Assembly (NCBI GenBank): GCA_045047305.1
Contig: JASFYO010000021.1
Location: 40,915 to 104,914, forward strand
Reading direction: 5' to 3'
DNA length: 64,000 bases
From: Planctomycetota bacterium
Lineage (GTDB): Bacteria > Planctomycetota > UBA1135
Notes under the pieces: generated by a model
What the model was told of the DNA's origin: nothing
The model's input: the letters and a program-made list of their open reading frames with translations, nothing else
Databases searched by the model: none
Program-made: the position numbers and the translations under genes
Part shown: one piece after another, positions 1 to 16,487 of the stretch
Position numbering within the stretch: position 1 is the first letter of the stretch
Layout: every line of letters begins with the position of its first letter

Positions 1-1040
1 GAATCCTCCGGATTTGTTTTTTCCTCGTTGTAACTCCCCCATCCATCACCTCGGCGCAAGAATATTTTACTAGCGTCACCGTATTCAATTTTCACGGAGG
101 AAATCCGTTCCGGATTCAAGTCCAAAATCCTCGAACTAATTAAGTCATCTAATGGGATATCTAGAAACCGATAGGTGTGCTCCTCGTATGAGAACGGATA
201 TTTCCTTTGATCGGATACCACCAATCCGTCAAAAACTTGAAGCCGAACTTGCCGATTCCCGGAAGTGAAAATCAAATCTCCCTTCTTTTTCTCCAAAGGC
301 AATTCTTCCAACAAAACATCACCGAGCCCTTCGACCCGTCCCCCCAATAGCGCCATGAGGTAAGGTTCACTTCTCACTTCAAGTGGTGCCTGGACTGGAG
401 CACGGAGATACCAGCGATTGTTTTTTTTCTCCAAGAGAATACGTGGCCCCTCCACAGGGTTCCAAGAGACTTGAGTTACCCCGGCTCCAAATTCGTGCAA
501 ACGATGGTCACGCCATTGTTCCACCGGACGCGCTAGCATGCGGAAATCAGGAATAGGGAAACGGACTAGTTTTCCATTGCACTTGGCGACCTGCCAATTG
601 CCAGAAGGTTCTTCAGCGCCAATAATTAGTTGCTGGACACTTCCGCCTTTGAAGGAAACTTCAATCAGAGCAGCGGCCGGGAGTAGGCCAAGCTCTTCCT
701 CCGACTGGTTTTCCCATCCCGCTGGGGCAGGCTCCCAATGGGTGGTAAACAATGCCTGAAGAGCCGCTTGAACTACAAAAGGTTCCGCGTGGTCCGGCAT
801 GGGATTGGTGATTGCCCAACGATTGTCCTTGTACTCCAAGGAAACGGTAATGCCGAATCGCGGTTGTTCTATGGATAAACCAGTCATAGAAGCTGGGTCC
901 CCTTCGATGAGGGTACCTGCGTTAGCTTGAGGAAGTTCTACTTCTAAGCTGGTAGCGGTTTGTGAATGCGAAAGCTGCCACAAACCAAACACCGCGCCCA
1001 AAAGCAGGAGACAAATCAAAAACAAACGAGTCGGAGTCAT
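1..1040 (-). CDS. DUF4340-like exported protein of Gld-type ABC operon (3' truncated by window edge)
   Basis: Not in the ORF track. ATG at 1040 overlaps the TGA of the upstream gene (ATGA). It reads MTPTRLFLICLLLLGAVFGLWQ (signal/anchor) and stays open to base 1, with repeated W..P segments and an ELGL motif. Its position after GldA/F/G-like genes is typical of DUF4340. Confidence 0.7.
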   Translation of the reverse strand, partial: MTPTRLFLICLLLLGAVFGLWQLSHSQTATSLEVELPQANAGTLIEGDPASMTGLSIEQPRFGITVSLEYKDNRWAITNPMPDHAEPFVVQAALQALFTTHWEPAPAGWENQSEEELGLLPAAALIEVSFKGGSVQQLIIGAEEPSGNWQVAKCNGKLVRFPIPDFRMLARPVEQWRDHRLHEFGAGVTQVSWNPVEGPRILLEKKNNRWYLRAPVQAPLEVRSEPYLMALLGGRVEGLGDVLLEELPLEKKKGDLIFTSGNRQVRLQVFDGLVVSDQRKYPFSYEEHTYRFLDIPLDDLISSRILDLNPERISSVKIEYGDASKIFLRRGDGWGSYNEEKTNPED

Positions 1041-2506
1041 CGTCTTCTTCTCCAAAAAATCAAAAGGCCTAAAAGGAATGTCAAACCTGGAAACACAAAG
1101 ATACTGATGTTCTGAATGCGTGCCATGACTGCGCGTTCGGGACGGAATGGTAATTCACCAAGCCCAACCAAGCCACGCTCAGCTTCATCATGACCGGAAA
1201 GCCAGATTAAGGCTCCAGCCAAAAGTTCGCGGTTGTAAAGGATGTCGGAGCGAATGCTTTCGGCAGAGCCTAGCACCACAATACGTCCGTGGAGATTATT
1301 TTCTCCAGGTGTCCATCGCTCTGCCGCAACAGCCAAAGGAACTACCCCTCGTTTCTCCCCGGGGTCCATTTCAAATAAGTTTTTCCGTGGATCTTCAATC
1401 CAGGCCAGGGATCCACTCCGAATAAGACGTTCTTGGGTGTAATCATTAGTTCCGCTGGCAAATTTAACTGGGCGTGCCCCCCGAAATAGCAAGAAACGCG
1501 AAGCCTCAATGAGAGGAACGGTGATGGAATGCTGCGGGCTTAATTGTTCTTGTTTTATTTCAAGAAAAGCACAATCGCTACGGCCAGTAACAAAACCACC
1601 CTGAATGCGTAATGGTTCACACACAAGCCCCTCTCCAAAACCAGTTCCATGATCTCGCAACAGATCATTCCAGAAGGAAATCACAGGTGGCGGTGCGTTG
1701 GGACCTAGGGCGAGCAGAACCGGTTTATCCGCCGCGACCCAAGCCTCCATCGCGGCGGCATCTGAGGGTAGAAAAGGTCTGCGTTGGCCGGGAATGATGA
1801 TGAGGTCTGCATCCTTGGCATCCTGCGGCCCTTCTATAGGAAAAACGTCCCAGTTTTCACGTTGCAGTTGCATGCGCAACTCGAGTAACTCATCGGCATC
1901 ATCCAGAGAACCTTGGCCATATCCGACTAAGACAGCTGCTTTGGGGGTATCTCCTGCAGCGAGGGCAACTGAGGCATCGCCCAGGGCAGATTCCACGCGT
2001 TCTTTGAGTATGCGGGCTGGAGCACCCTCAGGGGTTGCGCGTAGAATTTGGAACAAGTCCTCAAACGTAAGGACGCGTCGATCCCCGTTGGCTTCCAGGA
2101 TTAAAGTCTCTCCGGGTTGCCGATCGAGGCGTTTTATTTCACGATCAATGGCGACCAGGGGGCTGGATTCGTCCAAGATAAGTGTGGTAATTTTACCGCC
2201 ACTGCGCACCGCAGTGTCTTCGGTCAGACTACGCAATAAGACAAACGCCTGCGCATATACGGTGGAGCCAAATTTTTGGATATCTGGATCTTCAGGAAAA
2301 AGAAAAGCTGAAAGGGTGCTTCCTTGCGGCAATGCCTGCAAGGCTTCGGTTGTGCGATCACTGAGGCCTTGATCTTGAGCAGTGGTCCAATCCCAACGAA
2401 CACGCAAGCCGGGGCGTGAAAATGTATAAAGGAGGAAGCCCGTAAAGGCAACCGCGCACAAACCAGCAAAGATGGTGAGCATGCCTAAACGAAGGCGCCG
2501 GCTCAT
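1037..2506 (-). CDS. GldG-like ABC transporter auxiliary protein (GIFT-type domain)
   Basis: N-terminal TM, DWT..LS..T motif, GYGQG, LIIIPG, RIVVLGS, and a C-terminal TM ending WRRRR. Start set at ATG 2506, overlapping the upstream stop. Confidence 0.8.
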   Translation of the reverse strand: MSRRLRLGMLTIFAGLCAVAFTGFLLYTFSRPGLRVRWDWTTAQDQGLSDRTTEALQALPQGSTLSAFLFPEDPDIQKFGSTVYAQAFVLLRSLTEDTAVRSGGKITTLILDESSPLVAIDREIKRLDRQPGETLILEANGDRRVLTFEDLFQILRATPEGAPARILKERVESALGDASVALAAGDTPKAAVLVGYGQGSLDDADELLELRMQLQRENWDVFPIEGPQDAKDADLIIIPGQRRPFLPSDAAAMEAWVAADKPVLLALGPNAPPPVISFWNDLLRDHGTGFGEGLVCEPLRIQGGFVTGRSDCAFLEIKQEQLSPQHSITVPLIEASRFLLFRGARPVKFASGTNDYTQERLIRSGSLAWIEDPRKNLFEMDPGEKRGVVPLAVAAERWTPGENNLHGRIVVLGSAESIRSDILYNRELLAGALIWLSGHDEAERGLVGLGELPFRPERAVMARIQNISIFVFPGLTFLLGLLIFWRRRR

Positions 2507-3246
2507 GGGACCCACCTCCTGGACACCAGTCGGACCCAGGTTAGGAATAGGAATAGTGTGGACATTCCAAACAGATATACCAATGCATAACTGTCGATGA
2601 GCCCAGCTGAGAAACTACGGTCGAGAAAGTTTGGCAGATGGGTTAAACGTGCAATGTTTCCGAGTGCACCCTCTTTGTGCTCGAATAAGGCAGGTACGAA
2701 TAGAAGCATGTAGTTGAGTGCGGCTCCACCCCCAGCTGCCAAAACAAGATTGCTTCCCCATGAACTAGCCCAGAGCCCTGTAGCCAAAAACAAAAAACTT
2801 ACCAGCATGGCACCAAGTAATCCGCCCCAAATCCGTGCCCAATCCATGTTTGCACCGTGCCATGAAAGCAACAAGAAAAGCAAAAGGACTCCTCCCCAAA
2901 ACAAAAGGAAGAACATGCAGGCTGCAAAATACTTAGCTAGGACTACCGCTCCATCGCGAATGGGAGCAGTAAGCAATGGCTCTAAGGTGCCGACACGATG
3001 TTCTTCGGCAAACAAACGGATGCATAAGAGGGGCGGGAAGGCTGGGAGCAATAGCCACACCAACATGCCGCTACCAAGCAGATAGGGCGGCAGCAGACCA
3101 AGGTCATTTTGGACGGCCTGAGTTTCGATCGTGACACTAAACATCAACCCATTCAGTAAAAACCAGAATCCCAAAAGCACAAACACAAATGGGGAAACCA
3201 TGAGTGAGAACACTTCCTTTCTCCATAAGGCGCAGAAAGCATTCAT
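2503..3246 (-). CDS. ABC-2 type permease, GldF-like
   Basis: WRKE..S..SP and FAEE.R.GTLE.LLTAP..VLAKY motifs, about 6 TM helices. ATG 3246 is coupled to the upstream stop. Confidence 0.88.
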   Translation of the reverse strand: MNAFCALWRKEVFSLMVSPFVFVLLGFWFLLNGLMFSVTIETQAVQNDLGLLPPYLLGSGMLVWLLLPAFPPLLCIRLFAEEHRVGTLEPLLTAPIRDGAVVLAKYFAACMFFLLFWGGVLLLFLLLSWHGANMDWARIWGGLLGAMLVSFLFLATGLWASSWGSNLVLAAGGGAALNYMLLFVPALFEHKEGALGNIARLTHLPNFLDRSFSAGLIDSYALVYLFGMSTLFLFLTWVRLVSRRWVP

Positions 3247-4175
3247 GCGGGATCCCCCTCGACTAAGGAACGGAAAAGTTGGTCTAAGTCTGGGCGGATT
3301 TCGCGGAATTCTAAAACAGGGTACCCTTCTTTCCCGAGCCAACGAAACACAGAAGGACGCATATCAGGGGCTTGGAAACGTAGCTCAAACGTGGTTTCAG
3401 AGTTGCGTATAAGGCTGAATTGGAATTGTGATGCCACGGCCCTGAGACGAGCTTCTGCATGGGCAAAGCCGGGCTCCAACTGAATCAAAACGATGGCACC
3501 TTTTTGCATTTTCTGGTGGAGCTCTTGCAAAGTCCCAACGGCGCGCGAATAGCCGTGATTCAGAATTAGAACTCTGGTCGCAATCTCTTCTACTTCAGGG
3601 AGGACGTGACTACTGAATAGTATTGCTTTGCCTAGCGAGGAGAGCCCAATGAGAATATCGCGAAACTCTTGGCGCTGGATTGGATCCAGTCCTGTAAAGG
3701 GTTCATCCAAAAGAACCGCAGGAGGGTTGGCGAGCAATACATCGGCTAATCCAACTCGTTGGCGGAACCCTTTTGAAAGGGATGCAAAAGTTTGTCGCAT
3801 GCGTGGTGCAAGTCCTAATCTTTTCACGATTTCGGCAATGGAATTTCTGGCCTCGGTGCGCTTAAGACCTTTGAGGCGGGCGCGAAACATGAGGTATTCG
3901 ATAACCCGCATCTCTGAGGGTGCGACAAAGTTTTCTGGCAAATATCCCGTACTACTTCGTGCGCCCAAAGAATCTTGAGCCAAGTCTTTACCGTCAATGC
4001 TGCATTTCCCAGAAGTTGCTGGCAAATACCCGCTCAGAATGCGCAGAGTGGTGGTTTTACCCGCGCCATTGGGGCCCAAAAAACCGAGGATCTCTCCTGG
4101 CTTGACTTCCAAATCTAAATCCACCAGTGCGACATGGTTGCCGTACTTTTTGGTGAGTTTTTGGGTGAGAATCAT
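3243..4175 (-). CDS. ABC transporter ATP-binding protein, GldA-like
   Basis: Walker A GPNGAGKTT, signature LSKGFRQR, Walker B LLDEP, H-loop SSH. Confidence 0.93.
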   Translation of the reverse strand: MILTQKLTKKYGNHVALVDLDLEVKPGEILGFLGPNGAGKTTTLRILSGYLPATSGKCSIDGKDLAQDSLGARSSTGYLPENFVAPSEMRVIEYLMFRARLKGLKRTEARNSIAEIVKRLGLAPRMRQTFASLSKGFRQRVGLADVLLANPPAVLLDEPFTGLDPIQRQEFRDILIGLSSLGKAILFSSHVLPEVEEIATRVLILNHGYSRAVGTLQELHQKMQKGAIVLIQLEPGFAHAEARLRAVASQFQFSLIRNSETTFELRFQAPDMRPSVFRWLGKEGYPVLEFREIRPDLDQLFRSLVEGDPA

Positions 4176-4269
4176 GCTCGCGGTAGTGTGCAAAAAGGAT
4201 GCCGAAGCCATAGGTTACGTGACCCGCCTTACATTTCCCATAGAGTACATTTTGTGCGAATTCGCGCAT

Positions 4270-4310
4270 AAAAGAAGAAGGGCTGTCAGGAGCGAACTCC
4301 TGACAGCCCT
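4270..4310 (-). terminator. Intrinsic terminator of dnaK
   Basis: Perfect 14-bp stem AGGGCTGTCAGGAG/CTCCTGACAGCCCT with TTCG loop, followed by TCTTCTTTT on the minus strand, 16 nt after the dnaK stop. Confidence 0.88.
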
Positions 4311-4326
4311 ATGGGACGACGCAAGC

Positions 4327-6219
4327 CTAGTTTTTGACTTCGAAGTCAGCGTCGACTACGTCTTCCGAGTTGTCTTCTGCTTGAGGAGCCTCGCCACCAG
4401 TCTGAGCGCCGGCACCTTCGCCACCATCCGCGTAGAGCTTTTGCGCTACGGCTTGCATGGCAGTATTTAGCTCCTCCACCTTGGTCTCGACAAGAGCCAT
4501 GTCCTCGCTTTTGAGGGCCTCCTCTAGAGCTTCGATTTTGGCCTGGACATCTTCTTTTTCAGAAGCATCTAGCTTTTCACCTTGCTCCTTTATTAGCTTT
4601 TGTGCCTGCCATACGGTTTGATCCGCAAGATTACGCTTCTCGACTAGCCCCTTGGTAGCTTCGTCCTGCTCTTTGAACTTCTCGGCATCATCTTGCATCC
4701 GTTGGATGTCATCCTCGGACAGCCCCGAAGACTGCTCAATCCGTACTTTGTGTTCTTTGCCAGTAGCTTTGTCCACAGCATGAACATGCAGAATGCCGTT
4801 GGTGTCAATGTCGAATTCGACTTCGATTTGAGGGACACCGCGTGGGGCTGCAGGAATACCGTCGAGGGTGAAACGATCAAGGGTGCGGTTGTCGACAGCC
4901 ATCGGGCGTTCGCCCTGCATGACATGGACTTCTACTTTTGGCTGGTTATCAGCCGCAGTGGAGAACACTTCTTTTTTGGTGGTCGGAATCGTGGTGTTCC
5001 GCTCAATCAAAGTGGTCATCACGCCGCCCATGGTTTCAATTCCAAGACTGAGTGGAGTCACGTCGAGAAGTACGAGGTCTTCTACATCGCCCGATAGCAC
5101 ACCACCCTGGATGGATGCTCCCATGGCAACCACTTCGTCTGGGTTCATGCTGCGGTTTGGCTCTTGTGCAAAGACTTCCTTCACCACTTCTTGCACCATG
5201 GGAATGCGGGTGGAACCGCCTACCAAAAGCACCTCACTGATTTCAGTCGGCTTGAGGCCGGCATCAGAAAGAGCCTGTTGACATGGAGTCTTGCAGCGCT
5301 CAAACAAATCGGCGCAGAGGTTTTCAAACTTAGCCCGAGTCAGGTTCACCATGAGGTGCTTAGGACCGGTTGCATCAGCAGTGATGAAAGGCAGGTTGAT
5401 TTGCGTTTCGGTGCCAGAACTCAGTTCACACTTGGCTTTCTCACAACCTTCCTTGAGGCGTTGCAAGGCCATTTTGTCATCCCGCAGGTCAATGCCATTC
5501 TCGGACTTAAACTCGTCAGCAACCCAGTTAATGAGGATCTGATCGAAGTCATCGCCACCTAGCTGAGTGTCACCAGAAGTAGAAAGTACCTCAAAAACTC
5601 CATCACCGATATCGAGGATGGAGACATCGAAGGTGCCACCACCGAGGTCGAAAACAGCAATCTTGCCGTTTTTCTTCTTGTCCATACCGAATGCAATTGC
5701 TGCAGCAGTAGGCTCGTTAATGATACGCTCGACCTCAAGGCCCGCAATCTTGCCAGCATCTTTGGTGGCCTGACGTTGTGCATCGTTGAAGTAAGCCGGG
5801 ACGGTGATGACCGCCTTTTCGACCTTTCCGCCAAGATAATCCTCAGCACATTCCTTGAGATATCCAAGAATGTAAGAGCTGATTTCAGGTGCAGAGTATT
5901 CCTTATCACCCACTTTCACCTTTACGATTTCATTGGGTTTACCAACGACATCGTATGGCACCAATTTCTCATCACTACTGACTTCCTCATGACGACGGCC
6001 CATAAACCGTTTGATGGAGAAGATTGTGCGTGTTGGGTTGGTGACCGCTTGACGCTTGGCAGGACCGCCGACCAAGCGCTGGCCATTGTCCTGAAACGCC
6101 ACCACGGAGGGAGTGGTACGCCCACCCTCTTTGTTCGGGATGACCTTGGTCTCCCCACCTTCCAAAACAGATACGACGGAGTTCGTCGTTCCCAAGTCGA
6201 TTCCAATGATTTTTGCCAT
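4327..6219 (-). CDS. dnaK: Hsp70 chaperone DnaK
   Basis: [41 protein letters not shown]-terminal DVVDADFE. Start placed at ATG 6219. Confidence 0.98.
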
Positions 6220-6255
6220 TTCTTTACCAGGGGATGCCCCCTGGAGCTCTAGGTG

Positions 6256-6270
6256 GCAATTGCTGTGCCA
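6256..6270 (-). promoter_or_regulatory. sigma54 (RpoN) -24/-12 promoter of dnaK
   Basis: Minus strand reads TGGCAC-AGCAA-TTGC, matching TGGCAC-N5-TTGC. It lies in the 86-bp intergenic gap, giving a predicted TSS near 6244, about 25 nt before the ATG. Confidence 0.8.
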
Positions 6271-6278
6271 GGAATAGA

Positions 6279-6293
6279 CTGCCAATCTGACAG
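6279..6293. promoter_or_regulatory. Imperfect palindrome, candidate operator upstream of dnaK promoter
   Basis: CTGCCA-ATC-TGACAG (5 of 6 symmetric), 8 bp upstream of the sigma54 motif. Confidence 0.45.
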
Positions 6294-6305
6294 CCACCGC
6301 GTAAC

Positions 6306-7748
6306 CTATTCGGCCTGGAACCCTTTCAGCTTGCGGTACAGAGTTCGCTCACCAATCCCGAGTTGTTTCGCGGCTTTTTGGCGGTTTCCATCCATGGACT
6401 CTAGGGTGCCAAGAATCATGTCCCGCTCGACCTCCTCAAGCGACTTCCCAATGGGTGGGTAGCTCGGGCCGGTAGATGCAGGTGGCGCATTGATTTCCTC
6501 GTCAACTGGGCAAGATTTAGGTGCGCCAATAGGAAGCGATACTTCGGCCTCGATTAGCGGTGGTCTTGGTTTTAAATCTCGCAGATTGAGCGGAAGGTCT
6601 TCTACTCCTAAGCAGCCATCGGTGTCGAGAACCACCATGGTTTCCACAGCATTGCGTAGCTCGCGGACATTGCCCGGCCAGGTATGGGCACGGAGCACAC
6701 GCAAAAGATCCTCCGAAATCGCGGGAATGGATTTGCCATGACGCTCGGAGAATTCATGCAGGAAATGGTCCACCAGCAAGGGCAAATCTTCCAACCGTTC
6801 CCTTAAAGGAGGCATGTCAATTTCAACCACGGCAAGGCGGTAATAAAGGTCTTCACGGAATTCACCGGCTTCGATTCTTTGTCTCAGATTTCGGTTGGTC
6901 GCAGCAATGATGCGGACGTCAATCGGGCGCGCATCATTGGCCCCAACCGGAACGACTTCACGACTTTCTAAAACGCGCAAAAGTTTCGCTTGGGTCGATA
7001 GCGGCATATCGCCGATTTCATCAAGAAAGATGGTCCCCCCATCCGCAAATTCAAACTTACCTTGCTTGGATTCATGGGCGCCAGTGAAGGAACCTTTAGT
7101 ATGTCCAAACAATTCACTTTCAATCAAACTTTCGGTTAATGCCGCGCAATTCACCGCTACGAATCGGCGCTTATTGCGTTCCGACAAGCGATGCAGTGCA
7201 CTTGCAACTAATTCCTTGCCAGTGCCGGAATCGCCAAGCACCAGTACCGTTGCATTGGTTGGACCGACTTGGCGCACCAAGTCAAAGACTCGTGTCATGG
7301 CAGGTGCATTGCCAATCATGCCTTCCAGACCAAATCGGCGGTTCAGGGCCTTGCGCAGCTGTTGATTGTCCTCGGTAAGGCGCTGTTTCTCTAATTCTCG
7401 ATCCACTCGGGTGCGCAATTCTGCAAGATTAACAGGTTTGGTGAGGTAGTCTGCAGCCCCTTCCTGCATGGCCTGTACTGCGGTCTCAACCGTGCCATAA
7501 CCCGTGATCAGAAACACCGAAACCTCGGGACGACGTTCACGGATTGCGCGTAATAAATCCAAACCATTTCCATCGCCAAGCATGAGGTCGGTGAGGACGA
7601 CGTCGTATTTGCGAATGGGGAACCGATCCATCGCGGCTTGGAAGTGATCCGCAATTTCAACTATGTGGCCATCACGTTCCAAAGCCATTTGCATGGCTTC
7701 AGCATGATTCCGGTCATCGTCGACCACCAACAGTCGAGCACTAGCCAT
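6306..7748 (-). CDS. sigma54-dependent response regulator (NtrC/AtoC/ZraR family: REC-AAA+-HTH)
   Basis: REC (LVVDDD, LTDL, KP), Walker [15 protein letters not shown] loop, [23 protein letters not shown], Fis-type HTH. Confidence 0.95.
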
Positions 7749-8469
7749 AATTAGGAGATGCTTCCAAGGGGAGTGCCATGCTGACTCGGGTTCCATTGCC
7801 GGGAGAACTTTCAATTGAAAGCGTGCCACCATGGGCCCCCACAATGCGCCGCACGGTCGCCATACCGAGGCCAGACCCACCTTTCTTCGTGGAGTAGTAC
7901 ACCTGGAGGCATTGCTTCAAGGTTTCTGCTTCCATGCCTGGGCCGTCATCCACGATTTCAACTATGGCACGCTCTCCTTCACGTCGAGTGATGAAGGTGA
8001 TGGTGCCGTACCCACGCTCTTCCATAGCCTGCCGAGCATTGATAACCAAATTTAATAAGGCTTGCCGCATGCGACCGACATCGAGCATGACCAAGGGCAA
8101 ACTTAAATCCAAATAGGATTTGATTTGAATCCCAAGGCGTTGGGCCTCGGGTGTAGAAAATTGCACCACCTGTTCAATTTGCGCATTGAGCGAAGCGAGA
8201 CTGGCGTTTAAGGAATCGGTGCGTGCAAAACGCAGAAAGTCTTCCAGAATTCCGTTGAGTCGTAAGACTTCCGATTTCAAAATGCGTACGGTTTTGACCG
8301 TGCGTCGGGCCTTGATTCCATCCTCCGGCTCCCAATCCTCCTCCAGCAAAGCCAAGTGCAAGCTGATGGTGCTCAGAGGGTTTTTTAGCTCATGCGCAAG
8401 GCCGCCCGCAAGACGAGCAAGCGTTTGCGGGTCAAGGTCATGTGCACGTAAAGGTTGTTCCGAAGACAT
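7741..8469 (-). CDS. Cytoplasmic histidine kinase (HisKA + HATPase_c only)
   Basis: H-box AHELKNPL, N-box NLVINA, G1 DDGPGM, G2 GSGLG. No TM or input domain is visible. Its stop overlaps the regulator start. Confidence 0.92.
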   Translation of the reverse strand: MSSEQPLRAHDLDPQTLARLAGGLAHELKNPLSTISLHLALLEEDWEPEDGIKARRTVKTVRILKSEVLRLNGILEDFLRFARTDSLNASLASLNAQIEQVVQFSTPEAQRLGIQIKSYLDLSLPLVMLDVGRMRQALLNLVINARQAMEERGYGTITFITRREGERAIVEIVDDGPGMEAETLKQCLQVYYSTKKGGSGLGMATVRRIVGAHGGTLSIESSPGNGTRVSMALPLEASPNYG

Positions 8470-8543
8470 AAGGGCTTCCAGCGGCCAATGCCGCACGACT
8501 AGGATACCTGCGCTGGCTCCCATCCCGACATTGTTTCCTCCCC

Positions 8544-9620
8544 GTGTCCGCAAACTCATTCGACCTTAATACGACTTCTGGCCAGGCCGATGCCGCCAAA
8601 CGCCTTTGCGCAGGCGAAATCGTGGCTCTTCCAACCGACACGGTACCTGGATTGGCCATTCGAGCGGACCTCCCTCAAAGCGCGGAACGCTTGGCGCGGA
8701 TTAAAGGAAGTCCTCAAGGCCGCCCCTTTACGCTTCACTTGCCGCATATGCAAGCTATTCGGGAAATGGCGCCAACTTTGCCACCTGGATTGGCTGCATG
8801 GTTAAATACGCATTTGCCTCAAGGAGTGACGGCATTGTTACCCCGAAGGTGGGTCAATCTCGCAGACAGTATCGATTGGAAATGGAATCATGTGGGATTC
8901 CGTTTACCGCAGCAGCCTGATTATCAGGCGGTGACTGAAATTTTAGATTTCCCGCTATTGATGACCAGCATCAATCCAAGCGGCCAACCCTCCCTATTTG
9001 GCGAGGCTCTGAACCAATGGATCAGTTCGCATGGAGTGGCACACGCGACAGGATTGGCCCAAATTGGCGAGTGCGCCCCCTCAACCATTATTTCCTTTGA
9101 TCCGATGCCGAATGTTTTACGGGGGCAGGCTGCCACGGAAATGACTCTTCCTGGCAAACGAGTTCTGATTTTATGTAGCGGCAATATTTGCCGTTCCCCA
9201 GTTGCAGAGCATCTATTGCGTGAACTACTGGCCAATACCTGGCAAGTGCCTCAGGAGCAACTTGCGGATTCCGGGTGGATGGTGGCCTCGGCTGGGACCT
9301 TTGCCATAGATGGTGGCACGGTAAGCCGACATTCCTATACCGTTGGCCAAGAAATCGGTTTGGATTTATCCGCACATCGGTCGCAACATGTGGACCAGGC
9401 GCTGCAACAACCCTGGGACTTGATTCTAGGGATGGGGCCGAATCACCTTGCTGGCATGCCACCGGAACTGGCTTGTGAACTGTTCGACCCTACCGGCCAT
9501 GCTGTGCCGGATCCCTTTGGTGGGGAGCTTGCTGAATACGAAAACATGCGCAATCACCTCATGGTGGCGGCACGAAATCGAGTTGCTGCTTGGTCAGATT
9601 GGCCTCACGACCAGAGCTGA
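8544..9620 (+). CDS. Fusion of Sua5/YrdC (TsaC)-like domain and low-molecular-weight protein phosphatase
   Basis: N-terminal PTDTVPGL, GFRLP, TSINPSG, PSTI. C-terminal P-loop CSGNICRS, SAGT, H.S and DPFGG. Confidence 0.85.
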   Translation: MSANSFDLNTTSGQADAAKRLCAGEIVALPTDTVPGLAIRADLPQSAERLARIKGSPQGRPFTLHLPHMQAIREMAPTLPPGLAAWLNTHLPQGVTALLPRRWVNLADSIDWKWNHVGFRLPQQPDYQAVTEILDFPLLMTSINPSGQPSLFGEALNQWISSHGVAHATGLAQIGECAPSTIISFDPMPNVLRGQAATEMTLPGKRVLILCSGNICRSPVAEHLLRELLANTWQVPQEQLADSGWMVASAGTFAIDGGTVSRHSYTVGQEIGLDLSAHRSQHVDQALQQPWDLILGMGPNHLAGMPPELACELFDPTGHAVPDPFGGELAEYENMRNHLMVAARNRVAAWSDWPHDQS

Positions 9621-10054
9621 ACCACGTCCTCTGTGGAGGCCGCTTGGAGCAATTGATCGCGAAAGGAGACATCCCCAAGGCGCCGAGCGACCTCGGTAAG
9701 CGTTTGCAGGTGCATTAACTTTTCGTGCTTTGGCACCAAAATCATCACCACTATTTGCGCTGGTTTGTCATCCAGCGAGGCGAAATCCAATCCATCGGGC
9801 AATAGGGCCATGCTGACGAACATCTGCTCTAAGCCCTCTACAGCCGCATGAGGCACTGCGATACCAGCCTCCATGCCAGTAGAAACGCATTCCTCACGTG
9901 CAACCACACACTCTAAGCATAGGTTTCGAACCTCAGAGGAGAGATCCCATGCGGTGGCGAGGGCATCCACCATGGATTCTAATAGCTCCCATTTGTCGGA
10001 CACCGGAGGTGCCAGAAGAATGGAGCCAGCGCGGAAATGGGTGGGGAAATCCAT
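9605..10054 (-). CDS. Stand-alone PTS EIIA domain protein (Ntr/Fru-type)
   Basis: ARE..STG...GIAVPHA phospho-His motif, DF.SLD.KP, HL..L. Confidence 0.88.
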   Translation of the reverse strand: MDFPTHFRAGSILLAPPVSDKWELLESMVDALATAWDLSSEVRNLCLECVVAREECVSTGMEAGIAVPHAAVEGLEQMFVSMALLPDGLDFASLDDKPAQIVVMILVPKHEKLMHLQTLTEVARRLGDVSFRDQLLQAASTEDVVQLWS

Positions 10055-10247: not shown

Positions 10248-12470
10248 ATGCTCCTCATCATCAGTCTTGGCCTAGCGCCACTCCTGTTTTCTCCATCCTT
10301 TCAGGAACCCGAAGAAGATCTTCAGGTCCCTGAGAGTGTCCTTCAGTCAGACGGCGAGTACTTCACACTTGACCTGAGCGAACTCGATGAAGGCGGCTTA
10401 ACGCTGCGCCAGTTCATCAAGATCTGTCAGCTCAACACTGGCCTGAACTTCACTTTGGATGAATCCAATTCCGCCAACGTGCGTCAGAAGTTAGATAATA
10501 AACGACTTCTGCTCTATGGAGAGAAACGCATTAAGAAAGAGGACTTCTACTCCTTCTTTCAAATCATGATGAAAATTCATGGGTTCGTTTGCGTCACGCA
10601 AGGATCTGGCGATCTTGAAGTGATTGTGATTACGGAACAACTGGCTTCGAATAACACATTGATTAAATCCAATGCTCTATTCATCAGCGAAGAAAAGGTG
10701 AAGGACTATGCGGACAAGCCTGGAACCTTCCTCTACACAGTAGTCCCGCTGAAGTACGCAGAAGCGCAAGACCTAGGAACCAACTTGCGGTCTGCGATTG
10801 GTGGTAACGTCGGCGACAACTCTTCCTTCATGCCGCTAACTCAAGAGCAAGCCTTGTTCATTCAAGGTTATGGCCCTTTTGTTGCTGCTGCCGTGCGCAT
10901 GATCAAGATTCTAGATAAGAAGCCAGATTTGGTGCAGCCGGAATTCCGCAAGATTCCATTGCGTGAAACCAGTGCGGAAGAGCTTGCCGATATCCTGGTG
11001 GATTTGGTTGAGAATCTACAGGGACCTGAAACTAGATCTCCGAATACCAATCGTCGTTCGGGCGCCAACCCTACGGCACCGATTGAGACAAACATTGTTG
11101 CCTTTCCTCAAGACAACTCTTTGTTAGTCACTGCCGACCCGGAAATCATGAATAGGATTCTAGATTTAGTGGCGCAACTCGACACCAAAGTGCTGGAGCC
11201 GCAATCGAATTTCCATTTGTATGTATTGCAGTACCTCAGCGCAGCGGACCTAGATGAAGCGATTTCCCAATTCTTGCAACGTTCGGAAGATGAGGCTGAA
11301 CGGGCAAGCAGAAATGCCTCGGGTGGAAGTAACTCCCGTTCGCGAGTCACTGAGCAGAAAATCATCGTGGAAATCCACGAGGAAACAAACTCACTCCTTG
11401 TTACAGCAACCCGTTCCAAATGGGAAGAGCTGCGCACCTTGCTGGACCGCTTAGATCGCCGTCAACCACAAGTGTTGATTGAAACGGCCTTGATTGAAGT
11501 CAGTAACGATTTCTCGAGAGACATTGGCATTGAATATGCCAATGTGGAAACCCCAACTGGAAATACGCAAAAAGGTTTCGTCTTTACTTCCGTGGGAATT
11601 ACTTCAGGTGACACCATTGGCGGACCGCGCCTGCCGTCTCCAACCGCTGCTGGTCTAACCTTCGGTATCTTTGATGGAGCAGATCTTGGTATCCCTTTCA
11701 TCATTCAAGCTGCGCAAGCCAACACCGACACCAACATCTTGTCGGTTCCATCCATCTTGGTTGCGAACAACAAGGGTGCTACAGTGACATCGGAAGACGA
11801 GATTCCGTTCCAAACTTCAAACGCAGTGCAAGGTGCGGTTGCCAGCAATGTGGATTACACCACAGCTGGTATTACTCTGAATATCACCCCTTCGATTTCG
11901 GCGCAGAAATACTTGCGGCTGTCGATTAAGCTCACGGTTTCTTCCTTCCGCGGCGAAGCCACTGGAACCCTTCCTCCGGCCAAGGCCACGCGGACCATTC
12001 AGACCAATGTAAACCTGCCTGATGGTGCCACCATGTGGCTCGGGGGCATCATTCGCGATGACATTACAGACAGCGAGAGTGGCATTCCTTACCTCTCAGA
12101 CATTCCCCTGATTGGTGGCCTCTTTGGGCGTAACACGAAGAGCAATGTGAAAACAACATTGTTCTTTTTCTGCACGCCTACAATCCTCGAAGACTTCAAC
12201 GAACTTGATGACATTTCCAAGGATGGAAAAGCGCGCGCTGCGGCAACCATTGGTTTGGAAAGGGTACGCATGATTGATCCTGACTATCAATACGATAGCC
12301 CTGTAGACATCATTTTAGAATCCGATAACGACCAAGATGGTAGTCCTGACTTTGGTTCGCTGAACCTATCCGGTTTCGCAGCACCAAGATACCAGGGTTC
12401 CGGTGGAGTCCTGAATGATGGATCTGCGGTTGGATCCAATCGTTTCCTGCCAGTCCAGAACAACAAGTGA
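10248..12470 (+). CDS. gspD: Type II secretion secretin GspD
   Basis: Signal peptide, N-domains (PLKYA, NSLLVT repeats), QVLIETALIEV, P.I..ANN, GITL.ITP, WLGGI, GIPYLSDIPLIGGLF. Confidence 0.92.
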   Translation: MLLIISLGLAPLLFSPSFQEPEEDLQVPESVLQSDGEYFTLDLSELDEGGLTLRQFIKICQLNTGLNFTLDESNSANVRQKLDNKRLLLYGEKRIKKEDFYSFFQIMMKIHGFVCVTQGSGDLEVIVITEQLASNNTLIKSNALFISEEKVKDYADKPGTFLYTVVPLKYAEAQDLGTNLRSAIGGNVGDNSSFMPLTQEQALFIQGYGPFVAAAVRMIKILDKKPDLVQPEFRKIPLRETSAEELADILVDLVENLQGPETRSPNTNRRSGANPTAPIETNIVAFPQDNSLLVTADPEIMNRILDLVAQLDTKVLEPQSNFHLYVLQYLSAADLDEAISQFLQRSEDEAERASRNASGGSNSRSRVTEQKIIVEIHEETNSLLVTATRSKWEELRTLLDRLDRRQPQVLIETALIEVSNDFSRDIGIEYANVETPTGNTQKGFVFTSVGITSGDTIGGPRLPSPTAAGLTFGIFDGADLGIPFIIQAAQANTDTNILSVPSILVANNKGATVTSEDEIPFQTSNAVQGAVASNVDYTTAGITLNITPSISAQKYLRLSIKLTVSSFRGEATGTLPPAKATRTIQTNVNLPDGATMWLGGIIRDDITDSESGIPYLSDIPLIGGLFGRNTKSNVKTTLFFFCTPTILEDFNELDDISKDGKARAAATIGLERVRMIDPDYQYDSPVDIILESDNDQDGSPDFGSLNLSGFAAPRYQGSGGVLNDGSAVGSNRFLPVQNNK

Positions 12471-14194
12471 GCAGCGAACCCCTGACTTCGCCTCCCGATT
12501 TGCTCGGTATTCTTGCAAAAGAAACCGGGCAGGACCCTATCGAGTTGCGCAAATTGCGTGATCAGGCCTCTTCTAGCGGTCAAACTCTCGATCGGGTACT
12601 TCTGACCCGGGGACTTGATGAAGCTTCCGTTTTGCGCGCTTTCGCGGAAGACTTGGAAATGGAATTCCTTGAGGACTTTCAAGGTGTTCAAGTCCCGAAA
12701 GCCTTCGTCGACCGTGTCCCCCTATCCTTTGCGCGGGCACACAACATGGTAGGGATGGCCATGGAAGGGTCGGAATTGGTGGTTGCATGCGCCCACCCAC
12801 TCGACATACATCCACAGGACGATCTCATTGCTATGGTCCCATGCAGCGTTCGCTTTGCATTGGCTACCAAGGCAGATATTACCGAACTGGTAAACCGAGC
12901 CTTTCGCCACCGTGCAGATGGCGTCGATGATGCGCTGGATGACCTAGAAGGCGCCGATATTGTAGGACTCGCTGCTGAAATTGATGAAAGTGAAGACCTG
13001 CTTGATGTGGCCAATAAGGCGCCCATCATCAAGCTAGTCAACTCTGTATTGTTCCAGGCGTTGAAACTGCGCGCATCCGATGTGCACTTCCAACCCTACA
13101 CCGACCGCATGCAGGTCCGCTTCCGCATCGACGGCATTCTCTACGATATGGAAGGCATTCCTAAAAAAGCCCAAGATGCCATCACTTCGCGTATTAAGGT
13201 GATGGGCAAAATGGATATCGCGGAACGTCGGCTTCCTCAAGACGGGCGCGCATCCATTCGCATTGGCGATGGCGAGGTCGACGTGCGGATTTCGGTAGTG
13301 CCTACCGCAGAAGGAGAACGCTGCGTGTTACGTCTACTTGACAAAACCGCCCGCTCTTACGATTTGCAGCACATCGGGTTGGACGAAGAAAACCTGAAGA
13401 CACTGAAGCATTACTTGAATTTCCCCCATGGCATCATCTTGGTCACGGGGCCTACGGGGTCAGGGAAAACCACCACGCTATACGGTGGCCTGACTGAGAT
13501 CAGTACGGGTGAAAAAAATATTCTGACGATTGAGGATCCCGTCGAGTATCAACTCGACGGGATCTCGCAGGTGCAGGTGAACGTTAAAAAAGGACTGACC
13601 TTCGCGGCAGGTTTGCGTTCCTTCTTACGTCAAGATCCAGATGTAATGATGGTTGGTGAAATCCGCGACCTCGAAACGGCAGAAATTGCCATTCGAGCGG
13701 CAATCACCGGGCACCTAGTGTTCTCTACCGTGCACACCAATGACGCCCCAAGCACGGTAACTCGTCTTATCGACCTGGGTCTAGAGTCTTACTTGGTCTC
13801 CTCGTCTTTGGTGCTAGTTGTGGCACAGCGTTTGGTGCGAACCTTGTGTCAAACTTGCATTACCTGGATAGAACCAGACGAACAACAAATTGCAACTTTG
13901 CGCGCCGTTGGTATCGACCGCGAATTGTTAAAGGATGGGAAATTCGCCCATTCCCCAGGATGCGAGGACTGCTTCCATTCCGGATACCAAGGCAGAACGG
14001 CTATCTATGAACTTTTGCCAATGACAGAAACCATGCGTGAGTTGGTCATGAACAATGTCTCTGCAGCAGAACTCAAACGTGCTGCGATTCAAGGTGGCAT
14101 GCGGACTTTACGCCAAGACGGCATGCTAAAAGTCATTGCCGGTGAAACTTCTCCGGAAGAAATCATGCGTGTGACTCAGTTGGACATCATCTAG
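12467..14194 (+). CDS. gspE: Type II secretion ATPase GspE
   Basis: ASDVH, ERRLPQDG, GPTGSGKTT, EDPVEY, RQDPD..GEIRD, tetracysteine CQTC/CEDC. Confidence 0.95.
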   Translation: MSSEPLTSPPDLLGILAKETGQDPIELRKLRDQASSSGQTLDRVLLTRGLDEASVLRAFAEDLEMEFLEDFQGVQVPKAFVDRVPLSFARAHNMVGMAMEGSELVVACAHPLDIHPQDDLIAMVPCSVRFALATKADITELVNRAFRHRADGVDDALDDLEGADIVGLAAEIDESEDLLDVANKAPIIKLVNSVLFQALKLRASDVHFQPYTDRMQVRFRIDGILYDMEGIPKKAQDAITSRIKVMGKMDIAERRLPQDGRASIRIGDGEVDVRISVVPTAEGERCVLRLLDKTARSYDLQHIGLDEENLKTLKHYLNFPHGIILVTGPTGSGKTTTLYGGLTEISTGEKNILTIEDPVEYQLDGISQVQVNVKKGLTFAAGLRSFLRQDPDVMMVGEIRDLETAEIAIRAAITGHLVFSTVHTNDAPSTVTRLIDLGLESYLVSSSLVLVVAQRLVRTLCQTCITWIEPDEQQIATLRAVGIDRELLKDGKFAHSPGCEDCFHSGYQGRTAIYELLPMTETMRELVMNNVSAAELKRAAIQGGMRTLRQDGMLKVIAGETSPEEIMRVTQLDII

Positions 14195-14212
14195 TCCTTT
14201 AGGGGACCGAAA

Positions 14213-15511
14213 ATGCCGGTTTACGAGTGGAAAGGATTTAACAGCAAAGGCAAGAAAGCCTCTGGTGTCATTGACGCTGATTCCCCACGCGATGCGCGGG
14301 CGAAGTGCAAACGGCAGGGCATGCTAGTCACGGGCTTGGTAGAAATTCGTGCGGGAAGGAAAAAACGCACTGCCATGGTCTCGGCTTCCAAGGCCGGGCG
14401 CAAAGAGAACAAGCAACTTGCTCGATTCAAAAAAAGCATAGAATCTGCACGTGGCCGCAAAGAAGGCGGAATACGAAGTAAAGGGCGTACCGATGAGGTC
14501 GCAACTTTTACTCGTCAACTCGCCACCTTGACCAAGGCCGGCATTCCGATTACAGAAGCTCTGCGCGCGATCATTGAACAAACAGAAAATAAACGTCTAA
14601 ACATTCTTTATCGTGATATTCGTGAGCAGATTTCGCAAGGAACGCCGACGGCAGACGCATTGGCATCTCACCCGGATTACTTTGATTCCCTCAACGTATC
14701 GATGGTTCGCGCAGGTGAGGCCTCGGGGCATTTAGATTCCGTTCTGTTGAAGATGTCCAATTTCATGCAAGAACAGAGCAAAGTCCGAAACAAAGTGCAG
14801 GCTGCCATGATGTACCCCATGGTAATGCTATTGGTTGGCTTTGGCGTCATTGGGCTATTGATTGGTTTTGTAGTACCAAAAATCACTTTGATGCTGGAGA
14901 GCCAAGGAAGTGAACTTCCCCTCCCAACCCGGATATTGCAGGGCACTTCCGATTTCTTAATCGGATACTGGTGGGTTCTTTTTATTGTGATTATTTTCGC
15001 GTCACTCGGGTTTAACCTCTTCTATTCTTCCGACAAGGGTCGCCTTTCTGTAGACACGAAAATGCTGAAACTACCCATCTTTGGTGACTTGCTCAAGAAA
15101 CAGGCTATCGCACGATTTGCACAAACTTTCGCCACACTTCTCTCTTCTGGAGTACCTGTAGTACGTTGTTTGGAAGTAAACCGCACCGTGCTCGGCAACC
15201 GTCTCATGGAAAACACCATCGATGATGTGCGCAAGAAAATTATTGAAGGGGCAGACATCGCTGGACCGATTAAAGCGTCGGGGGTGTTTCCGCCCCTACT
15301 CGGTTACATGATTGCAGTGGGCGAACAATCCGGAGAGCTCGATTCCATGATGCAACAGATTGGTGATACTTACCAAGACGAAGTGGAAATCGCGACGCAA
15401 AAACTAACTTCCCTCATTGAACCAGTCCTAATCCTAGTGTTAGCGGTTATGGTCGGGTTCATCATCATGGCCATCTTGTGGCCGGTCCTACAAATGACCT
15501 CAAACTTTTAG
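14213..15511 (+). CDS. gspF: Type II secretion inner-membrane platform GspF
   Basis: FTRQLATL..AG, GE.SG.L, YP, LP.PT, GE.SGEL, LIEP; three TM helices. Confidence 0.95.
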   Translation: MPVYEWKGFNSKGKKASGVIDADSPRDARAKCKRQGMLVTGLVEIRAGRKKRTAMVSASKAGRKENKQLARFKKSIESARGRKEGGIRSKGRTDEVATFTRQLATLTKAGIPITEALRAIIEQTENKRLNILYRDIREQISQGTPTADALASHPDYFDSLNVSMVRAGEASGHLDSVLLKMSNFMQEQSKVRNKVQAAMMYPMVMLLVGFGVIGLLIGFVVPKITLMLESQGSELPLPTRILQGTSDFLIGYWWVLFIVIIFASLGFNLFYSSDKGRLSVDTKMLKLPIFGDLLKKQAIARFAQTFATLLSSGVPVVRCLEVNRTVLGNRLMENTIDDVRKKIIEGADIAGPIKASGVFPPLLGYMIAVGEQSGELDSMMQQIGDTYQDEVEIATQKLTSLIEPVLILVLAVMVGFIIMAILWPVLQMTSNF

Positions 15512-15513
15512 AC

Positions 15514-15927
15514 ATGAAAATCCAAACAAAACTTAAAAAGCGCGCGGGCTTTACTCTCATCGAGATCATGGTGGTGGTCCTCATCATCGGACTTTTGGTC
15601 AGTGTGGTTGGGCCTAACATTTGGAATGCATTGGTTAGCAGTCAAGCCAAAATCGCGGACACTCAAATTCGTTCGTTCCATGATGCCATGGATCACTATA
15701 AGTTAAGTAACTACACCTACCCAGACAGTTTGGAGGCCTTAACCGAACCGGACCCAGTGACCGGCAATCCAATCATTAAAACCATTCCTCTAGATCCTTG
15801 GCAGAATGAATATGTCTTGGACCAGGATGCTGATGGCAATCCCGTGATCACTTGTTATGGTGCCGATGGCGTGCCTGGCGGAGAGGGCGAGAACAAGGAC
15901 ATCTCTTCGGAAACTATAGGGATTTAG
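15514..15927 (+). CDS. gspG: Major pseudopilin GspG
   Basis: G|FTLIEIMVV prepilin site, YP..L.AL, DPWQN.Y, GADG..GGEG...DI. Confidence 0.93.
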   Translation: MKIQTKLKKRAGFTLIEIMVVVLIIGLLVSVVGPNIWNALVSSQAKIADTQIRSFHDAMDHYKLSNYTYPDSLEALTEPDPVTGNPIIKTIPLDPWQNEYVLDQDADGNPVITCYGADGVPGGEGENKDISSETIGI

Positions 15928-15935
15928 AGGTTAGG

Positions 15936-16487
15936 ATGAGGGCAAGAAGAGGGCGTCAGGCCGGATTTTCTCTGATTGAGATTACTGCCGTGGTCATCCT
16001 CATTGCCCTTGTTGCAAGTGTTGCCATGACCCGCTTGGATGGAGTGCTTCCATCTACTCGTTCTGAATCCGCTGCACGTGAGGTTCTGGCAACCTTAGAT
16101 TTTGCCCGCACCCAAGCTATCGCCAAGGCGCAGCCTTACGAAGTGGTTTTTGATTTTCCAGAACAACGCTACAGCATCCGAGTTCCGTTCGATTCCGAAG
16201 GTGTTTTAATTCCAAATCAAGAGGATCGGCCTTTGCTCTCTTGGCACCATTTTGAAAAGGGAGTTGAGATTCTGGGCATACTTGACCCGCGTGGGGAAAT
16301 CGTCAGAGACGGAATCTACGCCATTACATTTGATGACCAAGGCGCCTCTAGTGACGTCCATATATATATTGGACACACAGAAAACAAGGACTTTGAACTC
16401 ACTCTACGGGTGCTTTCGCTCACTGGTATCGCAAGCGTATTTCAAGGACATCTGGAACCCGAATTTCTGGTGGAAAATGATTTTTAA
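15936..16487 (+). CDS. gspH: Minor pseudopilin GspH-like
   Basis: G|FSLIE prepilin site, AR.QA helix; position after gspG. Confidence 0.8.
   Translation: MRARRGRQAGFSLIEITAVVILIALVASVAMTRLDGVLPSTRSESAAREVLATLDFARTQAIAKAQPYEVVFDFPEQRYSIRVPFDSEGVLIPNQEDRPLLSWHHFEKGVEILGILDPRGEIVRDGIYAITFDDQGASSDVHIYIGHTENKDFELTLRVLSLTGIASVFQGHLEPEFLVENDF

Follow-up and report, generated by a model that had tools for sequence, protein, structure and literature searches.

Background

The question raised by the window analysed here (64,000 nucleotides of contig JASFYO010000021.1, assembly GCA_045047305.1, from a Planctomycetota bacterium of GTDB lineage UBA1135) is how a solitary dnaK gene is switched on. Its neighbours encode an NtrC-type enhancer-binding protein, a histidine kinase, a fusion of TsaC with a low-molecular-weight (LMW) phosphatase, and a phosphotransferase system (PTS) EIIA protein (Table 1), and an earlier inspection of the DNA letters (the sequence-only reading) had proposed that all five form a single phospho-signalling circuit that switches on dnaK through sigma-54. 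Here we describe the genes, two DNA motifs, their conservation, and the co-occurrence of one motif with the activator. By linking gene content, motif distribution and gene neighbourhood across the phylum, we assign a probability of roughly two in three to a narrower reading, in which sequence comparison points to a phylum-wide sigma-54 two-component regulator of chaperone genes composed of the kinase and the activator, not of five genes. The TsaC-phosphatase fusion and EIIA are probably members of an old gene block and not of the circuit.

Chaperone induction in planctomycetes is an open question, to which we offer three components with phylum-wide conservation: a candidate activator, its kinase and a 13-bp site. 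In Rhodopirellula (R. baltica), heat shock was reported to induce ClpB, GroEL, DnaJ, GrpE and DnaK with the usual sigma factors unregulated, and a different cascade was suspected (PMC2754498). Sigma-54 promoters have been predicted at GroEL, GroES, IbpA, GrpE, DnaJ and DnaK in Planctomycetota and Bacteroidota (PMC12316311). Sigma-54 chaperone promoters in Planctomycetota are thus already predicted in print, and what is added here is the candidate activator, the kinase and the palindrome; a literature search reaching few subscription papers found no publication naming this activator, its site or its kinase.

In the mechanism proposed, the sensorless kinase would phosphorylate the adjacent activator, which would bind the palindrome TG(C/T)CA-N3-TG(G/A)CA and open sigma-54 promoters at dnaK, clpB, a receiver (REC)-groES-groEL operon and a groEL-groES-groEL-dnaJ-grpE operon, with heat or misfolding as the signal. 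The pair would then act as the principal chaperone switch in Planctomycetota, where HrcA and RpoH were not found. Judged from sequence, phosphotransfer from kinase to activator is very likely, and binding of the palindrome by the activator, with ensuing activation, only slightly less so.

Sigma-54 sites and a palindrome upstream of chaperone genes

A sigma-54 promoter requires an activator, and dnaK had been credited with a near-consensus promoter of this kind. The site is real: GG at -25/-24 and GC at -13/-12 stand at the fixed spacing, and the pattern, which occurs 22 times in the source genome, is expected about 4e-4 times per 100 bp. Read off the position of the -12 element, the predicted +1 lies near 6244. 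Eight bp upstream of the sigma-54 site is a 13-bp palindrome that the sequence-only reading overlooked, and in the source genome both motifs recur upstream of clpB, of the lone receiver-groES-groEL operon (where the palindrome copy has 2 mismatches and the same 8-bp spacing), and of groEL-groES-groEL-dnaJ, with grpE following dnaJ as read across the overlapping ends of contigs C66 and C23. The dnaK gene does stand alone, as had been noted, with grpE, dnaJ, hrcA and CIRCE not found beside it; since its co-chaperones belong to the same predicted regulon, however, a lone dnaK is not special in this genome and needs no special explanation. Genome-wide, 16 palindrome plus sigma-54 pairs were found with 1 mismatch allowed. 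By crude gene calls, 4 of the pairs are intergenic, of which 3 precede dnaK, clpB and groEL. The expectation that other heat-shock genes would share the promoter therefore held for clpB and both groESL operons and failed for lon, upstream of which neither motif was found in the source genome; the same was true of clpC, ftsH, tig, mcsB and rpoN. No match to sequence motifs for htpG or hsp20 was found in that genome, which is a weak test.

Among dnaK upstream regions of the relatives, the palindrome is present in 49/56, a sigma-54-type site in 45/56, and both in 41/56. Upstream of six neighbouring genes the palindrome occurs in only 1-9%, and both motifs together occur in 0 or 1 case each for the kinase (91 regions), activator (80), phosphatase (57), EIIA (34), ABC transporter (43) and gspD (37). 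Autoregulation of the kinase or the activator through the palindrome was considered and rejected, the counts (7/91 and 7/80, respectively) being near background. Outside the source family, the palindrome lies mostly 70-110 bp upstream, in many cases with two copies spaced by about 40 bp, which is the usual enhancer layout. Within the source family, activator and dnaK have moved closer together, with a gap of mostly 53-175 bp, and 17 bp separate the palindrome from the -25 G in 21/31 promoters; the others are mostly displaced by steps of about one helical turn, giving distances of 17-18, 28-29, 39, 48-50 and 61.

The lone receiver-domain gene that heads the groES-groEL operon (G000:C19:58370-58801) shares its promoter and palindrome, and a receiver also precedes groES at locus L257. 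Speculatively, this receiver may be an induced phosphate sink providing feedback. Sigma-54 sites without the palindrome (C46:5403, C49:21842, C55:20968, C83:16646, C38:25355 and C70:18279) precede large secreted or lipoprotein-like genes, which suggests a second sigma-54 regulon.

The candidate activator and known heat-shock regulators

The source genome (2.83 Mb, 87.66% complete) contains rpoN. In keeping with the expected absence of rpoH and hrcA, HrcA was found neither in the source genome nor in relatives (0/41), with one weak match among 151 phylum genomes, and RpoH over the cut-off was found neither in relatives (0/41) nor in the source genome. CtsR was not found in the source genome, nor was CIRCE at up to 3 mismatches, and sigma-32-like promoters were present in 0/55 dnaK regions; HspR was looked for by sequence motif only. 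An RpoH-like match on contig C16 was rejected as RpoH, its region 2.4 being RpoD/RpoS-like and no RpoH box being found.

The sequence-only reading had placed an NtrC-family activator and a histidine kinase upstream of dnaK in the same orientation, and both were found there with the expected domains. The activator combines REC, a sigma-54 AAA+ domain and a Fis-type helix-turn-helix (HTH), with D54, K104, Walker A and B and the GSFTGA loop intact, as in group I enhancer-binding proteins; in most orthologues the loop reads GAFTGA. Kinase-adjacent activators share a conserved recognition helix, GERTLYRK, and the orthologues form one clade (SH-aLRT 96 in a quick tree) that includes relocated copies from 9 genomes and leaves out the source genome's five other enhancer-binding proteins. 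On an HTH profile, orthologues score 73-93 bits and all others at most 68, with one borderline genome.

The association of this HTH with the palindrome was evaluated at groEL, using 60 loci from which 3 second-in-operon loci and the borderline genome were dropped, with groups set by the protein and not by the motif. The palindrome was present upstream of groEL in 40/42 genomes with an orthologous HTH, as against 3/14 without; in the HTH-positive group it was present in 0/126 coding windows, and 1.3 occurrences were expected from shuffles. An alternative is that another factor (an enhancer-binding protein or a repressor) reads the palindrome, or that the activator represses from -42, the pair serving some other signal. 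The five additional enhancer-binding proteins of the source genome, the abutment of site and promoter in the source family, and the palindromes retained in HTH-negative genomes speak for such an arrangement. Against it stand the co-occurrence at groEL, distances that step by about a helical turn, as expected of an activator touching polymerase, and the need of a sigma-54 promoter for an activator, the present one having its gene next to dnaK in several classes; we consider the alternative improbable.

A divergent kinase-activator-dnaK locus with the helix LKTLYRK has TGTCA-N3-TGACA-type sites, and genomes with the helix SLRTLQRK (G082 and G175) have CGCCA-N3-TGACG-type sites. Possibly, helix and site drift together, judging from these few cases (loci L227 of genome G054, L263 and L248).

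A kinase without an input domain

That the kinase lacks an input domain, as originally described, was confirmed. It contains HisKA and HATPase_c only, with a conserved ATG 25 codons before the His; its AlphaFold model (pLDDT 92) comprises DHp and CA domains and nothing else; and no input domain N-terminal to DHp was found by domain search, in open frames or in the model. In 68/96 and 67/80 loci, the open frame before the kinase His spans no more than 100 codons. A longer, 272-aa frame from an upstream ATG was rejected for its overlap with the phosphatase gene and its lack of conservation. Residues H26, E27, N30, N140, N144, D174, G176, G178, G198, G200 and G202 are invariant across 65 kinase sequences. 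By a general rule, an H-box of the form E-x-x-N points to both kinase and phosphatase activity, which suggests that this kinase is bifunctional. Several pnp-linked kinases (L094, L099, L113, L124 and L137) have, by eye, one hydrophobic N-terminal stretch and no sensor domain; these are possibly a membrane-tethered variant.

Among possible inputs, we tentatively rank chaperone titration first, by analogy with a known system discussed below: as long as DnaK, or another chaperone, is free, it would keep the bifunctional kinase in phosphatase mode, and the appearance of misfolded proteins would set the kinase free. An unlinked partner protein, ranked second, is somewhat more doubtful; control exerted at the activator is unlikely; direct temperature sensing by the kinase is very unlikely; and input from EIIA is the least likely of all. 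A conserved kinase without an input domain provides a clean case in which to ask how folding stress is sensed by a bare catalytic core. A bolder generalization, which we hold to be doubtful, is that the core heat-shock response of Planctomycetota relies on its own sigma-54 two-component system, in which the sensorless kinase would be gated directly by the chaperone pool that it induces, as a general alternative to sigma-32, HrcA, CtsR and HspR, with a phylum-wide enhancer and, in the source family, an activator site pressed up to the polymerase at -42.

Conservation of the gene neighbourhood

The kinase was found in 39/41 related genomes and in 120/151 phylum genomes (18 candidates scored per genome), records carrying it including ones titled Aeoliella, Schlesneria and Candidatus Kuenenia. 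Linkage was compared across all 39 loci from relatives and 60 from the phylum set, after removal of one 1.2-kb contig and of four loci with long-N-terminus kinases and activators outside the clade; a gene entered the count only at loci on a contig of sufficient length. In the source family, the kinase is linked to the activator in 23/23 loci, dnaK in 21/22, phosphatase in 22/22, EIIA in 21/21, gspD in 19/19 and the ABC transporter in 17/18. Corresponding values are 18/18, 12/18, 15/16, 10/15, 9/15 and 7/13 in other families of the order, and 38/53, 22/51, 19/51, 4/50, 8/50 and 15/46 in the rest of the phylum. Among 80 further loci, some of them from genomes already sampled, the kinase stands behind pnp in 56/78 and ahead of the activator in 54/77 (we take the pnp and rpsO genes beside relocated kinases to be such from their sequence). 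Kinase and activator are therefore the conserved core unit, and the anticipated kinase-activator-dnaK synteny is conserved across related genomes.

The same comparison speaks against a circuit of five genes, in which EIIA would bind the kinase DHp and supply its input and the phosphatase would reset the circuit. Support for that proposal comes from the source family, where all five genes stand together at nearly every locus, and from the EIIA itself, which keeps His69 in a genome that also encodes enzyme I (EI) and HPr. In that family, however, gspD and the ABC transporter ATPase are equally conserved, and farther afield EIIA is found near the kinase less often than the unrelated gspD and in 0/30 distant loci with a kinase unlinked to dnaK. 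As the least conserved neighbour, EIIA does not track the circuit. Linkage of the phosphatase to the kinase in the rest of the phylum is about that of the ABC transporter, and both are absent from loci with the kinase behind rpsO-pnp, in lineages in which palindrome and activator persist. A second EIIA adjoins HPr elsewhere in the source genome. The fusion and EIIA are real genes beside the kinase, as had been stated, but they do not continue an operon: the fusion points away from the kinase and towards EIIA, and as it lies on the opposite strand to both, cotranscription with either is impossible. The genes thus make up at least three transcription units of differing orientation, a five-gene operon is ruled out, and the five-gene circuit is very improbable.

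PtsN can act on DHp domains (PMC8534201). The EIIA of the window scores 77 bits against TIGR01419 (PtsN), below the cut-off of 139, and thus falls short of assignment to PtsN; a co-folded model of kinase dimer and EIIA scored 0.01 and was not used as evidence. The 2.8-Mb genome contains two enzyme I-like genes (C36:48973-50727 and C74:18641-20374) and three EIIA genes.

The TsaC-phosphatase fusion

LMW phosphatases do not act on His or Asp phosphates. Their targets are phosphotyrosine or phosphoarginine, which makes a role for the fusion in a His-Asp relay unlikely, and Thr at position 5 of the P-loop confers phosphoarginine preference (PMC7772506). This Thr is present in 29/34 fusions outside the source family, so that the phosphatase appears to have been ancestrally a YwlE-type arginine phosphatase; the window protein has Ile in its place (loop CSGNICRS), as do 14/23 in the source family. 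McsB-like kinases are present in 147/151 phylum genomes, those of the source family scoring among the lowest in the sample. The TsaC part, the only TsaC found in the source genome, scores 87 bits with Pfam and 68 against a cut-off of 123 with TIGR00057, and keeps S-x-N; its K-x-R motif is missing in 19/20 source-family members and kept in 21/32 outside. TsaD is present, and relaxed or altered N6-threonylcarbamoyladenosine (t6A) and phosphoarginine metabolism is possible in the source family (f1, L036-L058).

Like Bacillus YwlC-YwlE(-RpiB) with McsB, most relatives have TsaC beside an LMW phosphatase with a C-x-G-N-T-C-R-S loop, and McsB is present; unlike in Bacillus, the two genes are fused here, the window copy has Ile for Thr and is without the K-x-R, and CtsR was not found. 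The fusion thus fits a McsB/YwlE-type system better than a His-Asp relay, and a second layer of control is possible, in which the kinase-activator pair would drive the regulon and McsB with the YwlE-like phosphatase would tune it by arginine phosphorylation of activator, kinase or chaperones. Two-layer control would account for the old divergent linkage of the fusion, which is present in 17/21 dnaK-linked distant loci, and agrees with the prevalence of Thr and McsB and with CtsR not being found in the source genome. Yet the Ile of the window enzyme, an ABC transporter linked almost as often (14/21), and a palindrome that is not enriched upstream of the fusion (4/57) speak against it, as does the gene that follows the fusion in two loci, rpiB-like to judge from its sequence, in what would be a housekeeping ywlC-ywlE-rpiB layout. 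We regard such tuning as improbable.

Weighing the two-component reading

Control of dnaK by sigma-54 and the adjacent kinase-activator pair, the central claim of the sequence-only reading, gains support from rpoN, gene linkage, the promoters shared among chaperone genes, and HrcA and RpoH not being found. Several observations weigh against it. The incompleteness of the source genome bears on the absences of regulators, and there is a conserved extra sigma-70-family factor that reaches 156 bits against the RpoH model (cut-off 323). Definition of the motif started from dnaK sites, and the pattern was broadened once groEL sites had been inspected, some of them at loci used in the groEL comparison; the Fisher P of 1.7e-7 for the groEL comparison overstates the association, as kin are not independent. 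Three HTH-negative genomes keep the palindrome, two HTH-positive genomes are without it at the groEL copy examined, and these genomes hold many other enhancer-binding proteins (6 in total in the source genome). The source-family site near -42 abuts the polymerase footprint, a position unusual for an enhancer and one that would also suit repression, and clpB is patchy, a sigma-54 site by the pattern used being present in 13/30 and absent in 17/30. No kinase was found at E<=1e-32 in 31/151 genomes, including family f26, which has the activator and the palindrome, and given its frequency in dnaK-linked distant loci a functional tie of the phosphatase fusion is conceivable. Finally, at 4 loci the kinase lies beside dnaK with no adjacent activator. 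Reading these 4 as a clean knock-out failed, as degenerate or shifted sites remain and a sister-clade activator is present in those genomes.

Comparison with known systems

The published prediction for Planctomycetota (PMC12316311) agrees with ours in placing sigma-54 promoters at chaperone genes, with enrichment in Planctomycetia and less in Phycisphaerae; it differs in resting on matrix-based promoter prediction, its accessible text naming neither an activator nor a kinase nor an enhancer for them. For the SM4 (sigma-54) promoters of Flavobacterium psychrophilum (PMC9723704), mapped starts likewise put groES-groEL, dnaK, grpE-dnaJ, clpB, htpG and lon behind -24/-12 promoters; this is another phylum, with three candidate activators, and the accessible text describes no palindrome or sensorless kinase. 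Myxococcus xanthus HsfB/HsfA (PMC9109919), likened here by description, resembles the proposal in that a histidine kinase phosphorylates an NtrC-like activator of a heat-shock gene, whereas HsfB is a hybrid kinase and the target is lonD and not the core chaperones; lon carries neither motif here. NtrB/NtrC, AtoS/AtoC and ZraS/ZraR have the same kinase plus activator architecture and gave the best NCBIfam scores, all below cut-offs (activator: NtrC 429/559, AtoC 428/714, ZraR 395/760; kinase: AtoS 172/646), but the kinase here is without a PAS or periplasmic domain, and the targets differ. The precedent for chaperone titration is mycobacterial MprB, a histidine kinase that DnaK holds off until misfolded proteins titrate DnaK (bioRxiv 10.1101/2020.06.04.135335). 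DnaK binds the extracytoplasmic domain of MprB, which the present kinase is without, and the comparison is an analogy only.

Features of the locus and flanking genes

Table 1. Positions of genes and predicted elements, numbered within the window.
Feature	Position	Strand	Remarks
Intrinsic terminator 3' of dnaK	4279..4310	-	14-pair stem and T-rich tail
dnaK	4327..6219	-	630 aa; predicted regulated target; TIGR02350 match 957 bits (cut-off 823)
GC hairpin at predicted 5' end of dnaK leader	6227..6244	-	7 bp; 34-nt leader region fold -13.9 kcal/mol
Sigma-54 -24/-12 promoter of dnaK	6270-6256	-	TGGCAC-N5-TTGC
Palindrome TG(C/T)CA-N3-TG(G/A)CA	6279..6293		centre near -42; predicted activator binding site
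NtrC-type enhancer-binding protein	6306..7748	-	480 aa; REC-AAA+-HTH; recognition helix GERTLYRK; predicted activator
Sensorless histidine kinase	7741..8469	-	242 aa; DHp and CA only; overlaps activator start by 8 bp
TsaC(Sua5/YrdC)-LMW phosphatase fusion	8544..9620	+	divergent from kinase, convergent with EIIA
Stand-alone PTS EIIA, Fru/Ntr type	9605..10054	-	His69 kept

Beyond the terminator, which would set dnaK apart from them, Gld-like ABC transporter genes occupy 1037-4178, 3' of dnaK, and are linked to dnaK across several classes. Hairpins like that of the dnaK leader were seen by eye in several genus-level relatives. On the far side of the locus, a type II secretion-like cluster (secretin, ATPase, GspF and pseudopilins; 10248-16487) is divergent from EIIA and belongs to the same old gene block.

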